A stretch of DNA of 24,963 bases from a virus. Shown here one piece after another: positions 1,706 through 24,507 of the stretch. The position numbers and the translations under genes were made by a program. The notes beneath the pieces are model-generated. The model was given only the letters and a program-made list of their open reading frames with translations. It was not told the DNA's origin and did no database searches. Position 1 is the stretch's first letter. Each line of letters starts with the position of its first letter. The DNA is taken from UHGV virus genome UHGV-0093507; one strand, given 5' to 3'.

Positions 1706-2310
1706 GCGTTTACTCTCAGATTATCAATTAAATGAATGGCCGGGGCAGGGAAATAATCCCCTTCGACAATAATGGACTCCGGGGTGTAGGGATAAACCGT
1801 CAGGGCATCGCCGTGATAGCATCCCGTACCAACGAAAATCTTTCCGTTCACACTCAGGCTGATCGCCAGCCCCGTCAGATGGCGACTTACTGGTTTTGCA
1901 TCCGCAATAAGGCGCTCAAGTTCCTGATACATTTCATCGGTGATGCCCTGATCAAGTACTCCGACAACAATGCGAAATGTTCCTGGCTCCTCGTTGAGTT
2001 GCCACCACTCCTTTACTTCAATCAGGTAGCCGAGAGGCTCCACGGCTCTTCGCAGTGCGCTGATGGTCCCTTTGTGTCGGTGTATCAGCCATGCATCACG
2101 AATCACCTGTCGCTTTGTCTCTTCCGGCCAGTTGCGATCCCAGCGGTCAACGGAAAACGCCCAGGCGAGATAAGGCAGCAGATGCACCGGGCAGGTGTCC
2201 GGCGACCACAGCGTGTTGAGGTCTACCGGAATGTCTGTAATGCGTGTTCCGACGGCTTCGGCACAACGCATGAAATTGCTGGCTGATGGTGGTAACAGTG
2301 AATTACTCAT
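1702..2310 (-). CDS. I: Baseplate assembly protein (P2 gpI-like)
   Basis: 213-aa track ORF; likely start is the ATG at 2310, 2 nt after the gpJ stop (2303-2305). Position between J and H matches P2 synteny. Confidence 0.75.
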   Translation of the reverse strand: MSNSLLPPSASNFMRCAEAVGTRITDIPVDLNTLWSPDTCPVHLLPYLAWAFSVDRWDRNWPEETKRQVIRDAWLIHRHKGTISALRRAVEPLGYLIEVKEWWQLNEEPGTFRIVVGVLDQGITDEMYQELERLIADAKPVSRHLTGLAISLSVNGKIFVGTGCYHGDALTVYPYTPESIIVEGDYFPAPAIHLIDNLRVNA

Positions 2311-3199
2311 TGCGCCCACCTTCGCTGATGGTGAATGACTCACAGCGCGCTGCCTGTATGTCGCTGATGGCCATATTCTGTGTGGGTTCGATTATCTCCA
2401 CGCGTTGCACACCGTGCACATGCAGTGCGGCAGCAATGGCGGACAACGCCACGTCCTGACCGATAAGCCCCTGTTCAGCCAGCCACTTCCTGAATGACGA
2501 TTCTGCCGCGGCCAGAATAGGTTCGGATTCCGGGCCGGGGTAAAAGTACAGCTTTGCATTCAGCCGCCATGTCACGATTCTGGCGCTCTGTACGGTCAGG
2601 CGGTCGGCCACCGGGCGGGTATCCTCTGCATTCAGAACAGCGCGAACGGTATTAAGCAACGCCTCCGTTGCTGTGCCGTCGCCCTCAGTGGACAGGATGG
2701 AAACCGTCACACAGGCCGGAGACGGGCTGATGGCCCGCGCATCACGCACCAGACCGCTGGCGCTGCGTGCAAAATACTCGTATGCACCTGACGGGCCAGC
2801 AACACTCAGGCCGTCGTACGCCCGCTGCGCCCGCAGTCTCAGCGAGGTGTCGCTCTCCATCACCGCGTCGGTGGTATCCGTTGCCGGAGTGATAACCAGG
2901 CGCTTTGTGTTCATATTGCCCGCGAGGTTGTCCAGGTTTGTCCCTGAGCCGTGGCTTAACATGCAGGCGCGTGCGCCCTCGTTAACCCGCTGGCGTAACA
3001 GCATTTCACGAAACGACATGGTTTGAGCGATAACGTTCAGGGGTTCCGATTCCAGCTCCAGCGCGGCGGAGACGGCTTCACGCTGTTCGGCAGGATAGGA
3101 CGCAATCATCATGGCCTTTGTGTCAGCCAGAATTGCCTCAAAATCAGGCTCCGCGATGATGGCGGGTTCCGGTAACTGGGAAAGGTCAACAGCAGGCAT
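2303..3199 (-). CDS. J: Baseplate protein (P2 gpJ-like)
   Basis: 298-aa ORF, size and position as P2 J (between W and I). Confidence 0.8.
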   Translation of the reverse strand: MPAVDLSQLPEPAIIAEPDFEAILADTKAMMIASYPAEQREAVSAALELESEPLNVIAQTMSFREMLLRQRVNEGARACMLSHGSGTNLDNLAGNMNTKRLVITPATDTTDAVMESDTSLRLRAQRAYDGLSVAGPSGAYEYFARSASGLVRDARAISPSPACVTVSILSTEGDGTATEALLNTVRAVLNAEDTRPVADRLTVQSARIVTWRLNAKLYFYPGPESEPILAAAESSFRKWLAEQGLIGQDVALSAIAAALHVHGVQRVEIIEPTQNMAISDIQAARCESFTISEGGRNE

Positions 3200-8122: not shown

Positions 8123-9175
8123 TTAGCTGTCGGCGAACTTCAGGCCAGTGACCATCGCGCACTTGCCATAGTCTTCAACGACATAAGCGTCATTGATGGA
8201 CTGGTAGGTGGCGATGCGGTTGTATTCCGGTTCGTCTTTCATCAGACGACGCATTGAACCTTTCTGCCAGTAAATCGACAGGTTGTTGAATGAGGTGATC
8301 AGCATCGTTGCATCCGGGAAGAACGGCGCAAGGAACACGCCCAGCCCGCCAATGGTGCGCGATGACAGGATGAGCTGCCCGGCAAGTAATTCCGCATTGG
8401 GATTCTGGCCGCTGATGCTGTTCAGCACGGGCAGACGCAGCGAGTTAAACAGGTTGCGCCCCATAATCACCACGAGGTCGTCAGCTTCCTTGTGCCATTC
8501 ATCCAGCAGGGATGAGCGCGCGTCCTGTACCAGTGCATCAGGGTTCGCATACTTACCCGCGTGCGCCACGGTGTTGTCCATGTTGCGGGAGGTCAGCGTC
8601 ACGTCATTCATTACGCGCTCGCTGGCGTCGGCTCTGATGTGCTCCAGCCATCCCACGTTAACGTCCTGAAGCAGTTTGTTAGTGCTGAAGTTGGACTCAT
8701 CTGCGTGAGACGTGCCGTTGAAACCGATCATGATGCGGTCAAGCGCCACCTGCCGGGCAATCTGTGCGCTGATGCGGGACTGAAAATCGCTGTGTGCCGA
8801 CCAGGCATCAAGCTGTGGATACGAAATAAACGTGTCGTAGTTCACCTGTTCGCACTGGTATTTGCGGTTTTTCAGATCAACCACGTTATTCGGGTTACGG
8901 CGTTTTGTGCCGTCATAACTGGTATTCGTGCGCGCAATCGGTCCTGTGGTATCCAGGAGGATTTTTTCGCCTTTCTGGTCGGTCACGCCGATCACGTTAA
9001 TTCTTTTCGTTAGTTCTGTGCTGTCCTTTGAGGCGTTTTCAAAACGCTGCTGCACCGCGGGTTCCACGGTAAATCGCGATACCAGTGCAGATACCGGGAT
9101 ATTGTTAAGCGACGCCTGCTGCGCCATATAGCAACCCAGCTTGTTGCGGGTAATATCTGACATCACCAGATTCAT
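8123..9175 (-). CDS. N: Major capsid protein (P2 gpN-like)
   Basis: 350-aa ORF, size and position as P2 N, directly downstream of scaffold O. Confidence 0.85.
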   Translation of the reverse strand: MNLVMSDITRNKLGCYMAQQASLNNIPVSALVSRFTVEPAVQQRFENASKDSTELTKRINVIGVTDQKGEKILLDTTGPIARTNTSYDGTKRRNPNNVVDLKNRKYQCEQVNYDTFISYPQLDAWSAHSDFQSRISAQIARQVALDRIMIGFNGTSHADESNFSTNKLLQDVNVGWLEHIRADASERVMNDVTLTSRNMDNTVAHAGKYANPDALVQDARSSLLDEWHKEADDLVVIMGRNLFNSLRLPVLNSISGQNPNAELLAGQLILSSRTIGGLGVFLAPFFPDATMLITSFNNLSIYWQKGSMRRLMKDEPEYNRIATYQSINDAYVVEDYGKCAMVTGLKFADS

Positions 9176-15284: not shown

Positions 15285-15599
15285 TCATTCAGGAAAAAAT
15301 TCCTGAATATTCTTTTTTATTTGACTTATATTCTGATTTTTGCAACCAACAGGCTCGCTGTTATGCCAGCCCCATATGTGATTGTTGGCAGGCATATTTT
15401 CCCCCTCTGACCATTCAGCCAGCCAGTAAGCAAAGGCAGGATCGTTTTTAATGAGTGCCAGTCCAGCCAGAAATGCCGCGCGTTGCGCGCGGCTGCGTTC
15501 GGAGGCTGGCAGGCTGTCGAGATAATTACACGCTTCCCGTTCACTCTTGACTGCAGCTGGCTTCAGATAGAAACTTATCCGTCTGGTTGGTGTCGTCAT
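15285..15599 (-). CDS. parR: ParR-like partition adaptor (type II, actin-type partition system)
   Basis: ATG at 15599 with AAGGAG RBS overlapping the parM stop. 104 aa; the N-terminal segment RISFYLKPAAVKSEREACNYLDSLPASERSRAQRAAFLAGLAL resembles plasmid R1 ParR as recalled from memory. The track ORF is longer (149 aa, alternative upstream start). Confidence 0.6.
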   Translation of the reverse strand: MTTPTRRISFYLKPAAVKSEREACNYLDSLPASERSRAQRAAFLAGLALIKNDPAFAYWLAEWSEGENMPANNHIWGWHNSEPVGCKNQNISQIKKNIQEFFPE

Positions 15600-15603
15600 T
15601 GGT

Positions 15604-16597: not shown

Positions 16598-16712
16598 GCG
16601 GGATTCTGAAATCCCGTTTTTGCCTGTTTTATGCGCGCTTCATATATCGCGGCGCGTTTTTTGCTCATTTACGGGATTTGTGAATCCCGTTTCTGTCTGT
16701 TTTTTGTTTCCA
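16598..16712. repeat. Two ~42-bp direct repeats, each holding a 16-bp near-palindrome (gggattctgaaatccc / gggatttgtgaatccc) and a T-rich tail; copy 2 lies inside the 3' end of gene A
   Basis: Copy 1 16598-16640 (tgcgggattctgaaatcccgtttttgcctgtttt), copy 2 16670-16712 (tacgggatttgtgaatcccgtttctgtctgtttt). They sit immediately upstream of parM on its coding strand. Confidence 0.55.
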
Positions 16713-19507
16713 CTGGTCAGGCCACCCCGCAGCAGGTCTGCTTTGCGGCGGGCGCGTTCAGTAGTTTCACTGATTCTCTGTGCGTGCTCTGCGTCGCGGA
16801 TGGCGCGCAGCATGTCAGAAAGCACGGTAACGGGTGTTTTCATGGTGTTCTGGTCCTGCTGAAGTGTGGATGCCAGGCGTGCGGCGGCTTCGGGGTCTGA
16901 TGCCCCCAGCTGTTCCAGATAGCTGGCGACCGGGTTATGGCGGATCTCCGTACTGCTTACGCCGTGGTTACGGCTCAGGCGCTGCCAGAGCTGCGTGATC
17001 CGGCTGTCCGGTCGGGTATCCGGTTTGCGTACAATTTCAAATCCCTGCGGTGCAATGATGCTGCCGTCAACGTACAGACTGCCGCCCCGTAACAGGTGCT
17101 GCATCTGCTGTTCACCGATATGCAGGCCGAGAGATTCAGCAGACTCCCGCCATTCTTTAGCGAGTAATTCGTGGTTATCAGGCAAAGGCCGCTGCTGTTT
17201 GCGGCTCTGTGTCCAGCTCTGCATTTCATCACTGCTGTTTTTTGCCTGTTTGTCACGCAGCGAACGCATCAGCGCCCGGCGTTCGTGCCGTTTCAGTGAG
17301 CGCATCCATTCGTTCACTTCAACGCCGTCAGGGAGCTGCGGCCACGGTGCTGGCCGTTCTTCCGGCTGTTCTGTCCCGTTGTTGTCCGTTTCCTGTACAC
17401 GGGGACAGTTATTGCCACGAGTCCAAGGGGCGGCAGGGCCGCCCTGAAGGTCAAAACCATTTTCGCGGGCGCTGTCTTCCACTTCCGGTTTACGTCTTAC
17501 CAGCTTCCAGTTATCCGGATGCGTGCACACGCGGGAGGATTCCCCGATGAGTGGTGACCAGATCCCGTAAATCTGTACACTCTGTTCGCCGTAATCGTTC
17601 AGCTCATCTGCGAGGTCGTAGGCGGTGCGAATCAGGTAGTCCTTGCGCGGAACAAGTACGCCGCCCTGTTTCTCAATGTAGGTGGCAAAACACCCTGCAT
17701 CAGCGGCAGCGAGTACCGCATCCATTGCGTCATCCTTCAGCCGTTGCGGACCTTCCGGGTTGCGTGCCATCTGGCTGGCAAGGCGGCGCAGTTCACGCCA
17801 CACCTGACGGGAGGGGATGCCAAAGAACTGGAACTGGCGGACCCGGTGAAGGCGCGCCCAGCCGATGGCGCGTTCCACGCTCTCGGCCATTGATTTTCCG
17901 GTTTCGTGGTCAACGCGTGGCTTGCCCGTTTTCGGGTCGATGCCATCCACGGCGCGGCTGTCCAGGTTCTTTCCGATGTAGGTGGCGATGTAGCTGGTTG
18001 GCGTGCCTTTTGAGCCGTCTACGTACTCCGCCTTAAAACGCGGAGTTATGTCATCGCCCAGCTCGTGGCGGTCTTCCTGAATGGCAATATCGCAGACGTG
18101 GGACACGATGGTTTCAATCTCGTCCGGATGTGCAAAGACCATCATATGCCAGTGCACAGTGCCGTCATGGTGAGGCTCCACCGTGCGGATGCCATACCAG
18201 CGCAGACCGTCGCGGTTCAGTTTTTTGCGGACCGCCGCAAAAAACGTGTTAACCAGGTAATCGCTGGAGTCGCGCATGGTGGCCCCGTTCCATTTGGGGT
18301 TCGGATGACCGTTCTCTGTTGTGGCGTGGTATTTTGACGGGCAGGTGACAGTCAGAAACACCGCTCTGTCGCCACGGGCTTCGGCCAGAAGTTCCAGTCC
18401 CTTCATGGTGGCCATCATTTCTGCCTTACGGTGAACCGGGTTACTTACTCCCGCGTAATACACCGTCTCGAGATCAATCGTGAACCCGTCTTCATTTTCC
18501 AGCATGAAACTTTTCAGGAAATCGCGTGTTTTCTCGCGCTGTGCGCGAAACTCGCTTAACGCGTCCTGGCTCAGATAGGGTGATGTTTTTCTGGAAACCA
18601 GACAGGCGGCGCGGAGTTGTTCTTCTCTCCACTCGCAACGTAACAGCCACAGTTTGCGTTTCCACCATTCCGCACAGGTCAGGCGAAGGATTGTGCCCGG
18701 CAGCAGCTCCGTGTCCGGTTCGTTCCTCCGGTCTTTATCTGTTGTCAGTGCGTCATAATGTGGAGGCATGGCGTGCAGGTGTAACGCCATGCGGGCCAGC
18801 ATCTGATACGCCTTCAGCGTTACATCCATGGTCAGTTCGCCATCAGTCGCGCCAAAGCCATCGCAGAGTTTTTCGAAGGTGCTGCTGAACATCGCCGCCG
18901 TCATGGTGGCCAGCGTCTGTATCTGGTGTTTGTTGAGCTGCGGCAGGTAAAGCAAATCGTCCAGGCGTTCGCGTCCGGCAAGGGAGCGATAACCCGGTGT
19001 CAGCCAGCGGCTGTCGGTGCGGTCCAGACGTTCGAATATTTTGCGCAGGGTTCCGCGTGTATAGCGTTCCGCCTGCCAGCTCTTTTTGCCTTTCTGACGA
19101 TCGGCTTCCTGCTTCTTGCGCAGGAAAGAGAGGTGGCGGCTCAGAGGTTCTCGCAGATAAACGGGAAGCGCCTTCAGTGTGGCAAAGGCACGGGCTACCG
19201 GGTCTTGTTCTGTTGCCCGGCGCTTACTGATGATGCTCTGTGCCAGCTTTTCACGCTGTCCGGCTTCCTCAAGGGATGCCATGAGTTTTTTACCCATGGC
19301 GGATTGTGCGAAAAAGGCTTCTTCCTTCGCTTCCTGTTCTTCCTGTGCCCTTTTGTCCGCCTCAAGGTAGTAACGGATGGCGCGTTGCAGGTCGGTTTCA
19401 GTTTCCTGCCTGCGCTCCGTAAATCTGGCCGGATCAATAGCTGGTCGTGGTTCATTCCAGCTCCATGCAAACTCACTCATGGCTGGTATCCCGTCACGCG
19501 CTGCCAC
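16640..19507 (-). CDS. A: Replication initiation endonuclease (P2 gpA-like rolling-circle initiator)
   Basis: 955-aa ORF with HUH-type motif (…DGTVHWHMMVFAHPDE…); last large gene of the early operon. Confidence 0.8.
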   Translation of the reverse strand: MAARDGIPAMSEFAWSWNEPRPAIDPARFTERRQETETDLQRAIRYYLEADKRAQEEQEAKEEAFFAQSAMGKKLMASLEEAGQREKLAQSIISKRRATEQDPVARAFATLKALPVYLREPLSRHLSFLRKKQEADRQKGKKSWQAERYTRGTLRKIFERLDRTDSRWLTPGYRSLAGRERLDDLLYLPQLNKHQIQTLATMTAAMFSSTFEKLCDGFGATDGELTMDVTLKAYQMLARMALHLHAMPPHYDALTTDKDRRNEPDTELLPGTILRLTCAEWWKRKLWLLRCEWREEQLRAACLVSRKTSPYLSQDALSEFRAQREKTRDFLKSFMLENEDGFTIDLETVYYAGVSNPVHRKAEMMATMKGLELLAEARGDRAVFLTVTCPSKYHATTENGHPNPKWNGATMRDSSDYLVNTFFAAVRKKLNRDGLRWYGIRTVEPHHDGTVHWHMMVFAHPDEIETIVSHVCDIAIQEDRHELGDDITPRFKAEYVDGSKGTPTSYIATYIGKNLDSRAVDGIDPKTGKPRVDHETGKSMAESVERAIGWARLHRVRQFQFFGIPSRQVWRELRRLASQMARNPEGPQRLKDDAMDAVLAAADAGCFATYIEKQGGVLVPRKDYLIRTAYDLADELNDYGEQSVQIYGIWSPLIGESSRVCTHPDNWKLVRRKPEVEDSARENGFDLQGGPAAPWTRGNNCPRVQETDNNGTEQPEERPAPWPQLPDGVEVNEWMRSLKRHERRALMRSLRDKQAKNSSDEMQSWTQSRKQQRPLPDNHELLAKEWRESAESLGLHIGEQQMQHLLRGGSLYVDGSIIAPQGFEIVRKPDTRPDSRITQLWQRLSRNHGVSSTEIRHNPVASYLEQLGASDPEAAARLASTLQQDQNTMKTPVTVLSDMLRAIRDAEHAQRISETTERARRKADLLRGGLTSGNKKQTETGFTNPVNEQKTRRDI

Positions 19508-19866
19508 TCCTGCGAGAAGAGGGCAGAAAGGCGGTTAAATTCAGCGGTGTATTCACTCAGCGAGGCACACCCGCCAGCAGTGCGATGCGCCAGCATTGCC
19601 GCAAATACGGAGGCCGGGGAGTCGTAATACGCCAGCAGTGATTCTCCGTGTGGTGTCAGGTAGTGCAACGCCAGCCCGTGTGGTGTGAAGTCCACGCGGT
19701 AGCAGTCGTCTACTGTGAAATAAAGGGTGTCTGCATTCTCCGGTTTTGTGGTGCGTGCTCTGTTGTCACGACCACGGATGTAGAGAGCAAATAATCCCTG
19801 AAGAACGGGAGCCAGACGGGTGTCCTGTGTGCGCACCCATCTTGTGAAGTCATGAGCGTCAATCAT
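19477..19866 (-). CDS. Hypothetical early protein immediately upstream of A
   Basis: 129-aa ORF whose 3' end overlaps the A start by about 30 nt; no family recognised. Confidence 0.5.
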   Translation of the reverse strand: MIDAHDFTRWVRTQDTRLAPVLQGLFALYIRGRDNRARTTKPENADTLYFTVDDCYRVDFTPHGLALHYLTPHGESLLAYYDSPASVFAAMLAHRTAGGCASLSEYTAEFNRLSALFSQEWQRVTGYQP

Positions 19867-19938: not shown

Positions 19939-20169
19939 TTAATGGAGTTTGTTTTGCTGCTGGAAGAGTTGTTGCAGCTCGCGCAGATCATCCGCCAGAT
20001 AGCTGAAAACAGAGGCGGAATAGATGTTCGATAGCGCGTGGCTGCGCTCATGCAGCATATTGATGTGCATGATTTGCGCGACGCGTGATGCGCGGAAAAG
20101 TCTACGGTTGATTTCAGTCTGGATGTGACGACGCGCAGCGTATGCGCGCTGTTGTTTGCGGTTTGCCAT
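19939..20169 (-). CDS. Hypothetical small basic early protein
   Basis: 76-aa ORF in the early operon orientation; no family recognised. Confidence 0.4.
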   Translation of the reverse strand: MANRKQQRAYAARRHIQTEINRRLFRASRVAQIMHINMLHERSHALSNIYSASVFSYLADDLRELQQLFQQQNKLH

Positions 20170-20491
20170 GGTGTGGCCTCTTTGCTCGGTGATAGAAATA
20201 GCTCACCATCCAGAGTTGAGAATCTCGGGGTGGCGAGACGTACAGGGTTCTCAACACCGGAGAGCAAAGAATCCGGCCCGACCGAAGTCGGCCCCGTACG
20301 CCCCGCCATAATTCTGACGCGAAAAAGACGTGGCAATACAGTACGCACAAAAAAACCGCTGGCGCGGTTATGCGCTTTGCTCTGTATCGGGTTGAGAATC
20401 CCGGCACCCGTTTTATGAGGTGCAGCGGAAATGTAACCTGACCGATTGCGGCATGGCAAGCGGTTTTTTTGTGTGTGCATGTTCTGGTTTC

Positions 20492-20791
20492 TTACTGGTT
20501 CAGAAAAAAATCAAAAACGTTATCGATGCGTTGCAGCAGCTCTTGCTGCATTGCTTCCGGCGTTTCCGGTTCGCCAGGTGCTCCCAGCGTTGCGCAGAAA
20601 TCAGCGATTTCATGATGGAGCGTCAGGCGAATGGCAGGAGCCGTGGTTTTGGCGTGCTCCAGCTGATCCAGCAGTGCCAGCACAGCAGACGGCGAGAGCA
20701 TTGCGCGAAATGCCAGTAATTTTTGAGGAGTTGCCATTCGTTGCAGGGCAAATGCCAGTTCGCGTAGCTTCTGGTGGTTGATGGTGCTCAT
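20492..20791 (-). CDS. Hypothetical early protein
   Basis: 99-aa ORF; start overlaps the upstream gene stop by 4 nt (translational coupling). Confidence 0.45.
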   Translation of the reverse strand: MSTINHQKLRELAFALQRMATPQKLLAFRAMLSPSAVLALLDQLEHAKTTAPAIRLTLHHEIADFCATLGAPGEPETPEAMQQELLQRIDNVFDFFLNQ

Positions 20792-22799: not shown

Positions 22800-23078
22800 T
22801 TATTTTGTCATCTGCACGTATTTTTCTGCGCTCCTGATTGTTTTCAGGAAAAGAGCGAAGAGATTTACTGTGCGTCTTGAGTTCTTTTCATCCTGGTTGA
22901 TGGGAATTGAACCTCTGTCAGCCTGTCTTTTCACTGTGTTAACAGCTTGGTTGGTACGCTTTGCGTAATCTTTCAGGCTTTCTTCAAGTACTGGTAACCC
23001 ATGCTCATCGCGGTAGGGATAGAACGCTGCTAAACGCTCAAAGTCTGCCTGTTCGTGTGTGTTCAGGACTTTTGCCAT
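22800..23078 (-). CDS. Cox-like / excisionase-type small DNA-binding regulator, first gene of the early operon, divergent from repressor C
   Basis: 92-aa ORF positioned exactly as P2 cox relative to C and the operators; possible HTH around AKRTNQAVNTVKRQADRGSIP. The assignment is positional, not from sequence identity. Confidence 0.45.
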   Translation of the reverse strand: MAKVLNTHEQADFERLAAFYPYRDEHGLPVLEESLKDYAKRTNQAVNTVKRQADRGSIPINQDEKNSRRTVNLFALFLKTIRSAEKYVQMTK

Positions 23079-23117
23079 GTGTGATAACCTGCGCTATCTG
23101 TGGTTGTTTGTGACTTG

Positions 23118-23170
23118 GTGTACTTATAAGTACACCTTGTGCGCAAGCTTAGTGTACTTATAGGAACACT
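23118..23170. promoter_or_regulatory. Immunity-switch operator region: an 18-bp perfect palindrome and a related imperfect second site between cox-like and C
   Basis: gtgtacttataagtacac (23118-23135, perfect palindrome) and agtgtacttataggaacact (23151-23170); the shared 11-mer gtgtacttata recurs 34 bp apart. TATAAG-like hexamers are embedded in both orientations. Confidence 0.6.
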
Positions 23171-23174
23171 GTCA

Positions 23175-23483
23175 ATGCTTATCGGTGAAAAAATTAGAGT
23201 GATTCGTGAATCAGAGGATTTAACGCGCGAAGAATTTTGCGGCCTGATTGATGTGCCTATCGGCACTTTGCGTCGTTATGAAACGGGGAGGATTGAAAAC
23301 ATAGGTGGCGAAGTGCTTATCAAGATTGTTAATCACCCTCGCTTTTTTAAGTACATGAATTGGCTTATGACGGGAAAAACAAATGAGGCTGCTGGGCAGA
23401 TCAGTCCGTCTCTCTCCCCTGATGGGCCAAAAAGCACATCGCCTTCTCAAAAACCCCGCAAGACTGGCACACAGCCCGGCTAA
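23175..23483 (+). CDS. C: Immunity repressor (P2 C-like)
   Basis: ATG at 23175 directly after the second operator. HTH segment (…REEFCGLIDVPIGTLRRYETG…) and C-terminal HPRFFKYMNWLMTGKTNEAAGQISPSL resemble P2 C as recalled from memory; the track ORF starts 12 codons further upstream. Confidence 0.7.
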   Translation: MLIGEKIRVIRESEDLTREEFCGLIDVPIGTLRRYETGRIENIGGEVLIKIVNHPRFFKYMNWLMTGKTNEAAGQISPSLSPDGPKSTSPSQKPRKTGTQPG

Positions 23484-23532
23484 TCATGGAGCGCTGGGGG
23501 CATGGTGGTCTTGTAACGCTGGGGTTTCACGA

Positions 23533-24507
23533 ATGAGCATAAAATCAATTCCGGGAGGGTATCTTCTTGACATGCGCCCGGAGGGGCGTAAAGGCAAACG
23601 CATTCGTAAAAAATTTAAAACGAAATCGGATGCAGTTTTATATGAGCGGTGGGTGCTGGCGCAACAGCATAACAATGAGTGGAAAGGAAACTCCATTGAT
23701 CGCCGTCCGCTGTCAGTGCTTATTGACTTGTGGTGGAAATACCACGGCCAGCTAATGAAGTCAGGGCATAACACGCGCCTTAAATTGCTGCGCTTGAGTG
23801 AGGCAATGGATGACCCGTGCGTGCATAAACTTAATACAACGATGCTCACCGAGCTACGTGTGTCCAGGATAGAGCAGGGGATACAGCCCAGCACCATAAA
23901 TCGAGAGATTGGGGCGTTAAGCGCGATGTTTACCGCACTCATCTCATCCGGCCATTTTCTTAACGATAACCCCGTTCAAGGCCTTAAAGGAATGAAGGTT
24001 AACGAGCGCGAAATGGGATATCTGAGTAAGTCTGAATGTGTTCAGTTGCTGGATGCACTGGCTGAAAATCCCGATGAACGGCTGGCTGTCGAAATCCTTC
24101 TGTCGACCGGGGCGCGATGGGGCGAGGTAGCGGCACTGGAGCAGCGCCGTGTTCTTCATTGTCGAATCACTTTTTCAAAAACGAAGAACAGCAAAAACCG
24201 TACCGTTCCTATTTCTGAAAGCCTGTTTGAAAAGATCAAAAAACGGGGCGGGAAACTGGTGTTTCCGACGCTGGATTATCCATTGGTTCGCGATGTCATC
24301 AAAACGGTCGCACCTGATGTTCCTGATGGCCAGGCTGTTCATGCGCTGCGCCACACCTTCGCCAGTCATTTCATGATGAACGGCGGCAATATTCTGACGC
24401 TCCAGAAAATTCTGGGGCACGCAAAGATTCAGACAACGATGATTTATGCCCATCTTGCGCCGGATTACTTGCAGGATGCGGTGAGATTTAATCCTATTGC
24501 TGGGTAA
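23533..24507 (+). CDS. int: Tyrosine integrase (P2 Int-like site-specific recombinase)
   Basis: ATG at 23533 gives MSIKSIPGGYLLDMRPEGRKGKRIRKKFKTKSDA…; C-terminal catalytic signature …HALRHTFASHFMMNGG…LGHAKIQTTMIYAHL (R-H-R-Y family); downstream of C as in P2. Confidence 0.9.
   Translation: MSIKSIPGGYLLDMRPEGRKGKRIRKKFKTKSDAVLYERWVLAQQHNNEWKGNSIDRRPLSVLIDLWWKYHGQLMKSGHNTRLKLLRLSEAMDDPCVHKLNTTMLTELRVSRIEQGIQPSTINREIGALSAMFTALISSGHFLNDNPVQGLKGMKVNEREMGYLSKSECVQLLDALAENPDERLAVEILLSTGARWGEVAALEQRRVLHCRITFSKTKNSKNRTVPISESLFEKIKKRGGKLVFPTLDYPLVRDVIKTVAPDVPDGQAVHALRHTFASHFMMNGGNILTLQKILGHAKIQTTMIYAHLAPDYLQDAVRFNPIAG

Follow-up and report, generated by a model that had tools for sequence, protein, structure and literature searches.

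A probable P4/P1-type antisense-RNA immunity cassette in the leftward early operon of a P2-like prophage

The gap at positions 20170-20491 of the virus genome UHGV-0093507 (a stretch of 24,963 nucleotides, referred to here as the window) is very probably an antisense-RNA immunity cassette of the P4/P1 type, situated in the leftward early operon of a P2-like prophage (Xuanwuvirus / P88 / Sp13-type). The gap is flanked by two minus-strand open reading frames (ORFs), one of 99 amino acids (aa) at 20492-20791 and one of 76 aa at 19939-20169, and all of its own elements are read on the minus strand as well. The features that carry this assignment are established: the membership of two RNAs in known families, their structures, a conserved promoter and terminator, the three-way co-variation of antisense segments with their two sets of targets, the overlap of one target with a ribosome-binding site, and homology to the layout of P4. 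The cassette most likely represses an ε-like antirepressor gene, and polarity would extend the effect to ORF129 and to gpA, the replication gene.

The element is already known in kind. The c4 and a1b1 motifs, and the a1b1/a2b2 model, were described by Weinberg 2010 (PMC2864571), and the C4 alignment of that study includes NC_002695.1/2598583-2598670, which is the Sp13 copy of E. coli O157 Sakai and is 98% identical to the window locus; because this copy has been in the alignment since 2010, the novelty of the cassette as such is low. A search of the literature on antisense RNAs of Xuanwuvirus or P2-like phages found nothing specific. What the present analysis adds is the picture of co-variation, a conserved frame resembling P4 eta, an observation on the Pfam “Ash” family, and the presence of a satellite-type module in a helper-type phage.

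Two small RNAs and their target sites

A scan of the whole 25-kb window against Rfam at gathering thresholds returned exactly two matches, both in the gap and both on the minus strand (Table 1). The first is an RNA of the IsrK / P4 seqA type, in which two 5' hairpins are followed by the b1 site and by an intrinsic terminator (stem 20369..20356, U7 run 20355..20349); its minimum-free-energy fold agrees with the family structure (z -3.1). The transcription start predicted for the cassette promoter, P_isrK, falls at about 20423, and the spacing agrees with the family model, whose position 1 is at 20423, with the -10 hexamer ending 6 nucleotides (nt) before it. Both hexamers are invariant among 56 distinct homologues, as is the terminator helix in the alignment of these 56, and the promoter is analogous to PLE of P4.

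The second RNA belongs to the C4 family. It is built from a 17-bp closing stem, a UUCG-capped hairpin (20291..20278) and a second hairpin that bears the b' loop, and its minimum-free-energy fold is the family structure itself (-47.6 kcal/mol, z -4.9). From the P1 annotation, the mature form is predicted to span 20307..20229. Two segments of C4 are available for recognition, the b' loop and the a' segment of the single-stranded junction, and each has one complementary site upstream in IsrK (a1, b1) and one downstream in the leader (a2, b2). Of the downstream sites, b2 overlaps a conserved Shine-Dalgarno sequence, AAAGAGG (20183..20177), which reads 7 nt before the ATG at 20169. In the predicted fold of the whole read-through RNA, a' and b' are paired in cis with a2 and b2, together with the Shine-Dalgarno sequence. 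A comparison with shuffled sequences revealed no extra C4 targets beyond chance elsewhere in the window.

Table 1. Coordinates of the cassette features and of the genes associated with them
Feature	Coordinates	Strand	Details
Cassette promoter P_isrK	20459..20430	minus	Predicted by promoter scan; -35 TTGCCA 20459..20454, 18-nt spacer, -10 TACATT 20435..20430
IsrK / P4 seqA-type RNA	20423..20349	minus	Rfam RF01394, 62.8 bits (cut-off 50), E 1.8e-11, model positions 1-77
a1 target site	20391..20398	minus	RNA 5'-UUCUCAAC-3', loop of second IsrK hairpin, complementary to a'
b1 target site	20375..20383	minus	RNA 5'-AGAGCAAAG-3', complementary to C4 loop b'
C4 / P4-CI-type antisense RNA	20313..20226	minus	Rfam RF01695, 78.5 bits (cut-off 45), E 4e-14, full-length over positions 1-87
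b' recognition loop of C4	20261..20271	minus	RNA UUCUUUGCUCU; hypervariable, about 12 types, always complementary to b1/b2
a' recognition segment of C4	20248..20255	minus	RNA GUUGAGAA; single-stranded junction; 6 types, always complementary to a1/a2
a2 target site	20215..20222	minus	RNA UUCUCAAC, just 3' of C4; equivalent to part of P4 seqC and to P1 a2
b2 target site	20177..20188	minus	RNA GAGCAAAGAG at 20187..20178; most other loci pair one base further 5', to 20188
ε-like derepression protein gene, 76 aa	19939..20169	minus	Pfam PF25738 “Derepression”, E 1.4e-7
Downstream genes of the transcription unit	16640..19866	minus	ORF129 19477-19866; replication gene gpA 16640-19507; overlapping ORFs
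Eta-like ORF, 205 aa	19863..20480	minus	Crosses IsrK, C4 and a2/b2; overlaps the ε-like gene out of frame

These elements coincide with what had been noticed earlier in the bare sequence. The original prediction listed two copies of a repeated motif, an inverted partner and two hairpins, and a direct check of the sequence found all of them where they had been placed. The repeat copies are gttgagaatctcgggg (20215-20230) and gttgagaatcccgg (20391-20404); the inverted partner, gggttctcaac (20245-20255), is the a' segment of C4; the hairpin ccgac-cgaa-gtcgg (20278-20291), with its UUCG loop on the minus strand, is the P2 hairpin of C4; and the hairpin with a U-run that was described as weaker (20349-20369; minus-strand terminator scan match 20369..20354) is the IsrK terminator. 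Three possible functions had been offered, namely an array of regulatory sites, a terminator or attenuator within the operon, and a small RNA; each is partly right, as the gap holds all three. The small RNAs are two in number by the Rfam matches, the terminator scan places an intrinsic terminator at the 3' end of IsrK, and an array of target sites is present, although these sites pair RNA to RNA and are not DNA sites of the neighboring winged-helix protein. The second (b) set of sites, the strand logic and the overlap with the ribosome-binding site were not part of that description.

Taken within this single window, the repeat GTTGAGAAT is by itself only weakly beyond chance: it occurs at 20215 and 20391 and nowhere else, where 0.23 occurrences are expected, and the same count of 2 turns up in 3 of 100 shuffles. 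The second repeat set, CTTTGCTC/GAGCAAAG, is found at 20180-20187, 20262-20269 (minus strand) and 20375-20382, and gives five matches in the window against 1.13 expected, a number that none of 100 shuffles attains. The decisive evidence on the repeats is the comparison among homologues and not the counts inside the window.

Co-variation of the antisense segments with their targets

We collected 97 homologous loci (from E. coli, Salmonella, a Citrobacter phage and IMG/VR), which represent 57 distinct gap sequences; a scan of genome contigs with the ε-like protein contributed only three loci, and a scan of viral contigs was far richer. Formal helix counts were made on an alignment (A1) of 56 distinct sequences. 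The scaffold of the cassette is nearly invariant in these sequences, and the variation is concentrated in six short segments, namely a1, b1, b', a', a2 and b2. Six a' types and about twelve b' types occur in 20 a'/b' combinations, and the targets fit their own C4 in every locus.

All four helices show changes on both sides that preserve pairing. For a1:a' and a':a2 (7 pairs each), 100% of cells in the alignment are paired and 4 pairs have changed on both sides; the corresponding values are 100% and 6 pairs for b1:b' (9 pairs), and 95.8% and 5 pairs for b':b2 (11 pairs). In control alignments, in which the 3' partner was slid by 1-3 columns, only 39-54% of cells pair. Predicted duplex energies separate in the same manner, with means of -9.8 to -13.9 kcal/mol for segments of the same type and -3.5 to -6.1 kcal/mol for segments of different types. 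The C4 stems P1 and P2 are themselves supported by 3 and 2 pairs, respectively, that have changed on both sides, with 99.9-100% of cells pairing. Covariation analysis among related prophages had been suggested as a check in the original prediction, and its outcome is that the targets co-vary with the complementary segments of C4.

This pattern bears directly on a reading in which a phage DNA-binding protein (such as the MarR-like winged-helix protein or the C repressor) uses the repeats as its operators and the gap is a transcriptional operator array. A direct repeat with an inverted copy does resemble an operator layout, a winged-helix gene lies about 300 bp upstream, and in P1 a C1 operator overlaps the c4 promoter. 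However, the motif copies change in a strictly complementary manner relative to the C4 copy and not identically to it, and only at the RNA level is it explained why the sites occupy a hairpin loop, a junction of the RNA and a Shine-Dalgarno sequence. The winged-helix protein can be excluded as the reader of the repeats, because loci with wholly unlike a and b motifs encode versions of it that are 97% identical. We regard an operator array as extremely improbable.

A further possibility is that the gap is a cis-acting attenuator only, in which the terminator and alternative leader structures tune gene A, with no trans-acting RNA and no role in immunity. The invariance of the intrinsic terminator, the predicted cis fold that sequesters the ribosome-binding site, and the suggestion that C4 may sometimes act in cis (Weinberg 2010) are all compatible with such a switch. 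Against it stand the homologues in P1, P7 and P4, which are trans-acting immunity factors according to the literature, and the diversification into roughly 20 combinations of specificity, in which the two sets of targets follow C4; such diversity is expected of trans immunity but needless for a switch in cis. A dedicated, conserved promoter inside the operon moreover argues for independent expression in the lysogen. An attenuator acting in cis alone thus appears improbable, and an antisense-RNA immunity cassette is the reading that we retain.

One locus departs from the one-specificity arrangement. In L031 (IMGVR_UViG_2582580934_000004, nt 270-330), the C4 copy contains a 17-nt insertion and thereby carries two b' sequences, of which the window type occupies the hairpin loop and a second type lies in the junction; the b1/b2 targets of this locus fit the second type only. 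This C4 is either a natural recombinant of dual specificity or an assembly artefact.

The 205-aa reading frame across the gap

A minus-strand ORF of 205 aa runs across the whole gap (Table 1). It begins 57 nt before the point at which transcription is predicted to start, and its stop codon shares an ATGA with the start of ORF129. The frame is open in 54 of the 56 distinct variants. The sequence upstream of the conserved block comes in at least six unrelated versions, and in these an in-frame ATG is found at position -17 or -20 relative to that block. The ORF is annotated as an “antirepressor” in Sakai (ECs_2630) and as a coding sequence (CDS) in PhiR44_2 and P88_4B11, and it has PHROG matches down to 9e-16 and a weak match to Pfam PF10554 (Phage_ASH). 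These features favor the view that the interval is simply a missed protein-coding gene, an “antirepressor / Ash family” CDS, in which the RNA-family matches and the repeats are incidental.

The substitution pattern is different from that of a conserved protein. Gap variants are spread evenly over the codon positions of the 205-aa frame (18/18/22), and 40% of them are synonymous, compared with 27-28% in the other two frames. Where the ORF overlaps the ε-like gene, the coding signature belongs to the latter, with 53% of variants synonymous in the ε frame, together with third-position bias, and 21% in the 205-aa frame. Moreover, the variation within the gap sits in the six short segments that co-vary as RNA pairs, the Phage_ASH score (19.3 bits) is below the cut-off of 26 and comes without codon-position bias, and the NCBI annotation pipeline PGAP either gives an “ash family protein” pseudogene at the gap or leaves it empty. 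Taking together the stop codons counted in each of the three frames, the conservation of the start and the stop, the statistics on synonymous changes and codon positions, and the expected number of stop-creating variants, we reject a conserved protein, and consider a missed gene very improbable as the explanation of the gap.

The antisense-RNA cassette overlaps a frame that is free of protein-level constraint and yet is possibly translated. The gap had originally been called apparently non-coding and its ORFs spurious. This holds insofar as the substitutions reveal no selection on a protein, but it overlooks an ORF that spans the whole gap, is an annotated CDS in several records, is kept open with a conserved in-frame ATG, and appears to correspond to the eta frame of P4. 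A conserved protein-coding gene in homologous phages had been named as the finding that would speak against a non-coding gap; such a gene is present formally, by annotation, but is not borne out by the substitution pattern.

The correspondence with P4 is one of relative position, the 205-aa frame and P4 Eta / Phage_ASH sharing one relative frame. The P4 frame is an ORF of 199/198/197 aa that starts with MMM (8170-8766 of L009, minus strand) and matches Phage_ASH at 4e-23. We take it to be eta, with kil nested at its end, the agreement in size (197-199 aa) being the single check on this identification. The ORF annotated as “cI” in P4 is the C-terminal part of the same Phage_ASH-matching frame; a BLASTP comparison between it and the 205-aa ORF was not significant. 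A corresponding frame is open in both cassettes of a P4-like satellite and is not open in P1. Forti et al., in J Bacteriol in 1999, reportedly found that transcripts from the upstream promoter PLL become insensitive to immunity-dependent termination when eta is translated on them. By analogy, the 205-aa frame may carry ribosomes across the cassette on transcripts that come from the early promoter, a proposal to which we give not quite an even chance.

It also follows from these matches that Phage_ASH seems to model the frame that overlaps the RNAs, i.e., a translation of the P4 seqA-CI region (in the window, positions 20165-20441), and not ε; the true P4 ε matches PF25738 at 9e-51. A published scheme for the detection of satellites took PF10554 as an ε marker (PMC8628076), and the distinction matters for pipelines that do so.

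Mechanism, known systems and prophage context

In the mechanism that we propose, the conserved promoter at about 20459..20430 would drive a short IsrK/seqA-like RNA that carries a1 and b1 and ends at its own terminator. Read-through would extend transcription into the C4/CI-like RNA, which is presumably excised from the precursor as in P1, P4 and Gifsy-1; in P1 and P4, the 5' end of this RNA is made by RNase P. The junction segment a' and the loop b' of C4 would then find their partners, a2 and b2, in the adjoining downstream leader, where b2 would cover the Shine-Dalgarno sequence of the ε-like derepression (antirepressor) gene, and this pairing, in trans or in cis, would block translation of ε. 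The resulting loss of coupling would let Rho-dependent termination stop transcription before ORF129 and gene A. The a1 and b1 sites of IsrK may serve as decoys that titrate C4, with activation of ε (cf. Gifsy-1), or as co-targets that aid termination (cf. P4 seqA). Finally, the 205-aa frame, which starts upstream of P_isrK, could let long early transcripts escape the RNA immunity in the manner of P4 eta.

The presumed regulated target is the ε-like gene, which is the first translatable gene on P_isrK transcripts. Its product is 33% identical to P4 ε over 51 aa (E 4e-9). Beyond it, gpA matches Pfam Phage_GPA at 2e-129, and ORF129 shows no similarity to ORF151 of P4; both genes would be regulated through polarity. 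Five elements of this mechanism are inferred: how the precursor is processed, how termination comes about, which way IsrK acts, what ε does, and what purpose the open frame serves.

Several points weigh against the cassette as described. The transcription start, processing sites and RNA sizes are predictions from sequence. The scan of the gap for promoters found two minus-strand σ70-like sites, and the second, just before C4 (20336..20308, TTGCCA-17-AATTAT, with its -10 overlapping the C4 5' leader), is possibly no real promoter; its -35 reads TCGCCA in about half of the homologues, and a separate C4 promoter could not be relied on. Action of ε on the phage's own C repressor is putative. The upstream element fails the P1-type c4-a1b1 model (RF03163; 15.9 bits against a cut-off of 46.7, where P1 itself scores 51), and the NCBIfam model phage_ICD_like, which matches a P4 ORF at 7.8e-21, has no match among the window ORFs. 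Lastly, stop-creating variants of the 205-aa frame, calculated on the reference background, number about 4 against about 10 expected, which is a modest depletion.

Two of these points also place the cassette among its relatives. The RF03163 score rules out P1-type a1b1 membership of the upstream element, and since the element of P1 itself is of the c4-a1b1 type, the cassette is of the P4/IsrK subtype. Because the window has no Icd/kil-like gene, its first regulated gene differs from that of both paradigms.

Among the closest known systems is P4, in which Rfam identifies isrK (8692..8615) and then C4 (8507..8420) directly upstream of ε. The two Rfam families occur in the same order as in the window (promoter, seqA, CI, seqC, ε), the a and b targets flank the antisense RNA, b2 lies on the Shine-Dalgarno sequence of the first gene, and an ε-type gene follows. 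A long open frame (Eta, 197-199 aa) begins upstream of the promoter in P4 and crosses the RNAs, and the 205-aa frame of the window may be its counterpart; a replication gene stands at the end of the operon in both. There are also clear differences. P4 is a satellite with an α primase, whereas the window element is a complete P2-like phage with gpA. P4 has a kil/Icd-like domain that is unmatched in the window; here the ε-like ORF is itself the first under b2, and in place of a nesting with kil there is an out-of-frame overlap between the open frame and ε. The ε proteins differ in length (76 aa in the window, 95 aa in P4), and the polarity of a' is opposite (GUUGAGAA in the window, UUCUCAC in P4). 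Compared with two P4-like elements, the window phage has only partial similarity at the a sites, and the b sites are different.

One P4-like satellite, that of E. coli EH53 (L005, NZ_CP146512.1, positions 2300-3060), has two tandem cassettes, each consisting of an a1/b1 leader followed by C4. The isrK model matches the first leader only, and the a/b specificity differs between the two cassettes. Each is followed by an Icd-like ORF, into which an open eta-like frame runs in frame.

P1 scores 68.8 bits with the C4 model RF01695. According to its curated record, P1 immI contains promoters, a1, b1, c4 (77 nt), a2, b2 and icd at spacings nearly identical to those in the window, and the product regulated by the immI of P1/P7 is an antagonist of the main repressor, which would be a further likeness. 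The upstream element is of the c4-a1b1 type in P1 and of the isrK type, with its own terminator, in the window; P1 has icd and ant genes, which are lacking in the window, and has no open frame through the cassette. The P1 promoter is overlapped by a C1 operator, and nothing equivalent is shown in the window. The heteroimmunity of P1 and P7 is set by the a/b sequences, according to the passage of PMC2864571 that cites Citron & Schuster 1990.

For Gifsy-1 (isrK, orf45/STnc1160, anrP), the comparison is made from the literature alone. Hershko-Shalev 2016 recognized IsrK as a seqA homologue and the CI-like STnc1160 as a product processed from the IsrK read-through transcript (PMC4825925). As in the window, IsrK has its own promoter and a (leaky) terminator and is accompanied by a C4/CI-like RNA. 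Translation of the downstream antirepressor is controlled through its leader, as proposed for the window; the published mechanism emphasizes IsrK as an activator acting in trans (PMC4825925). Unlike the window element, Gifsy-1 is a lambdoid prophage, and its antirepressor, AnrP, is translated through coupling with orf45.

The window as a whole is a P2-like prophage (Peduoviridae; Xuanwuvirus / P88 / Sakai Sp13-type), with P2-type capsid, terminase, tail and lysis genes to the left of gpA (16640-19507), and a helix-turn-helix repressor and an integrase to the right of the gap. A P4-like satellite (with an α primase, sid, psu and δ, and no structural genes) was considered for the window and is ruled out by gpA and by the capsid, terminase, tail and lysis genes. 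The locus is present in 1181 of 5426 complete E. coli genomes (~22%). A ParM protein (actin-like plasmid segregation, 15604-16563) and a “plasmid partitioning/stability” gene (about 15290-15600) are encoded just downstream of gpA, and are either cargo or a hint of plasmid-like maintenance.

Conservation of the cassette starts abruptly at CACAAAAAAACCGCTTGCC (window 20474-20500; columns 1-28 of alignment A1). The gene immediately upstream varies by locus, and encodes a 99-aa Ead/Ea22-like protein, an SPFH protein or a 183-aa DNA-binding protein; because this gene differs among loci, the upstream junction looks like a cargo-gene or recombination hotspot of the early operon. An E. coli genome (L098) is 100% identical to the window across the gap, but has another repressor, cox and integrase region (compared with window 22800-24507). 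Because of this combination, the RNA cassette and the C/Cox immunity region appear to be mosaic and to reassort independently. The enterobacterial P2-like module also occurs, at about 90% nucleotide identity, in an assembly labelled Vagococcus sp. WN89Y (L007, NZ_JBQPOM010000071.1); given the Gram-positive label, this is probably contamination or a mislabelled assembly.

These findings leave the known paradigm unchanged. They settle how a prophage locus that is very common in E. coli should be annotated, which is empty, a pseudogene or an “antirepressor” CDS in present records, and indicate that the ε-type derepression module is not specific to satellites. The approximately 20 antisense specificities with co-varying targets amount to a clean natural experiment in the diversification of RNA immunity specificity, and the set could be of use in designing orthogonal RNA repressors and in predicting heteroimmunity among prophages.

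A broader and more tentative proposal, which we consider possible though rather unlikely, is that helper-type P2-like phages carry a P4-type RNA immunity and ε module as a modular second layer of immunity, with an eta-like translational bypass. If this is true, the a and b modules would reassort independently, in at least 20 combinations, and transcripts from the early promoter would be insensitive to immunity, with those from the internal promoter being silenced. P2-like prophages and P4-like satellites could then use the module in cross-talk or warfare with each other, a reading that extends a speculation on defence against satellites reportedly made by Barquist et al. It would also point to a common ancestry of the regulatory core of the satellites and the module of their helper phages.

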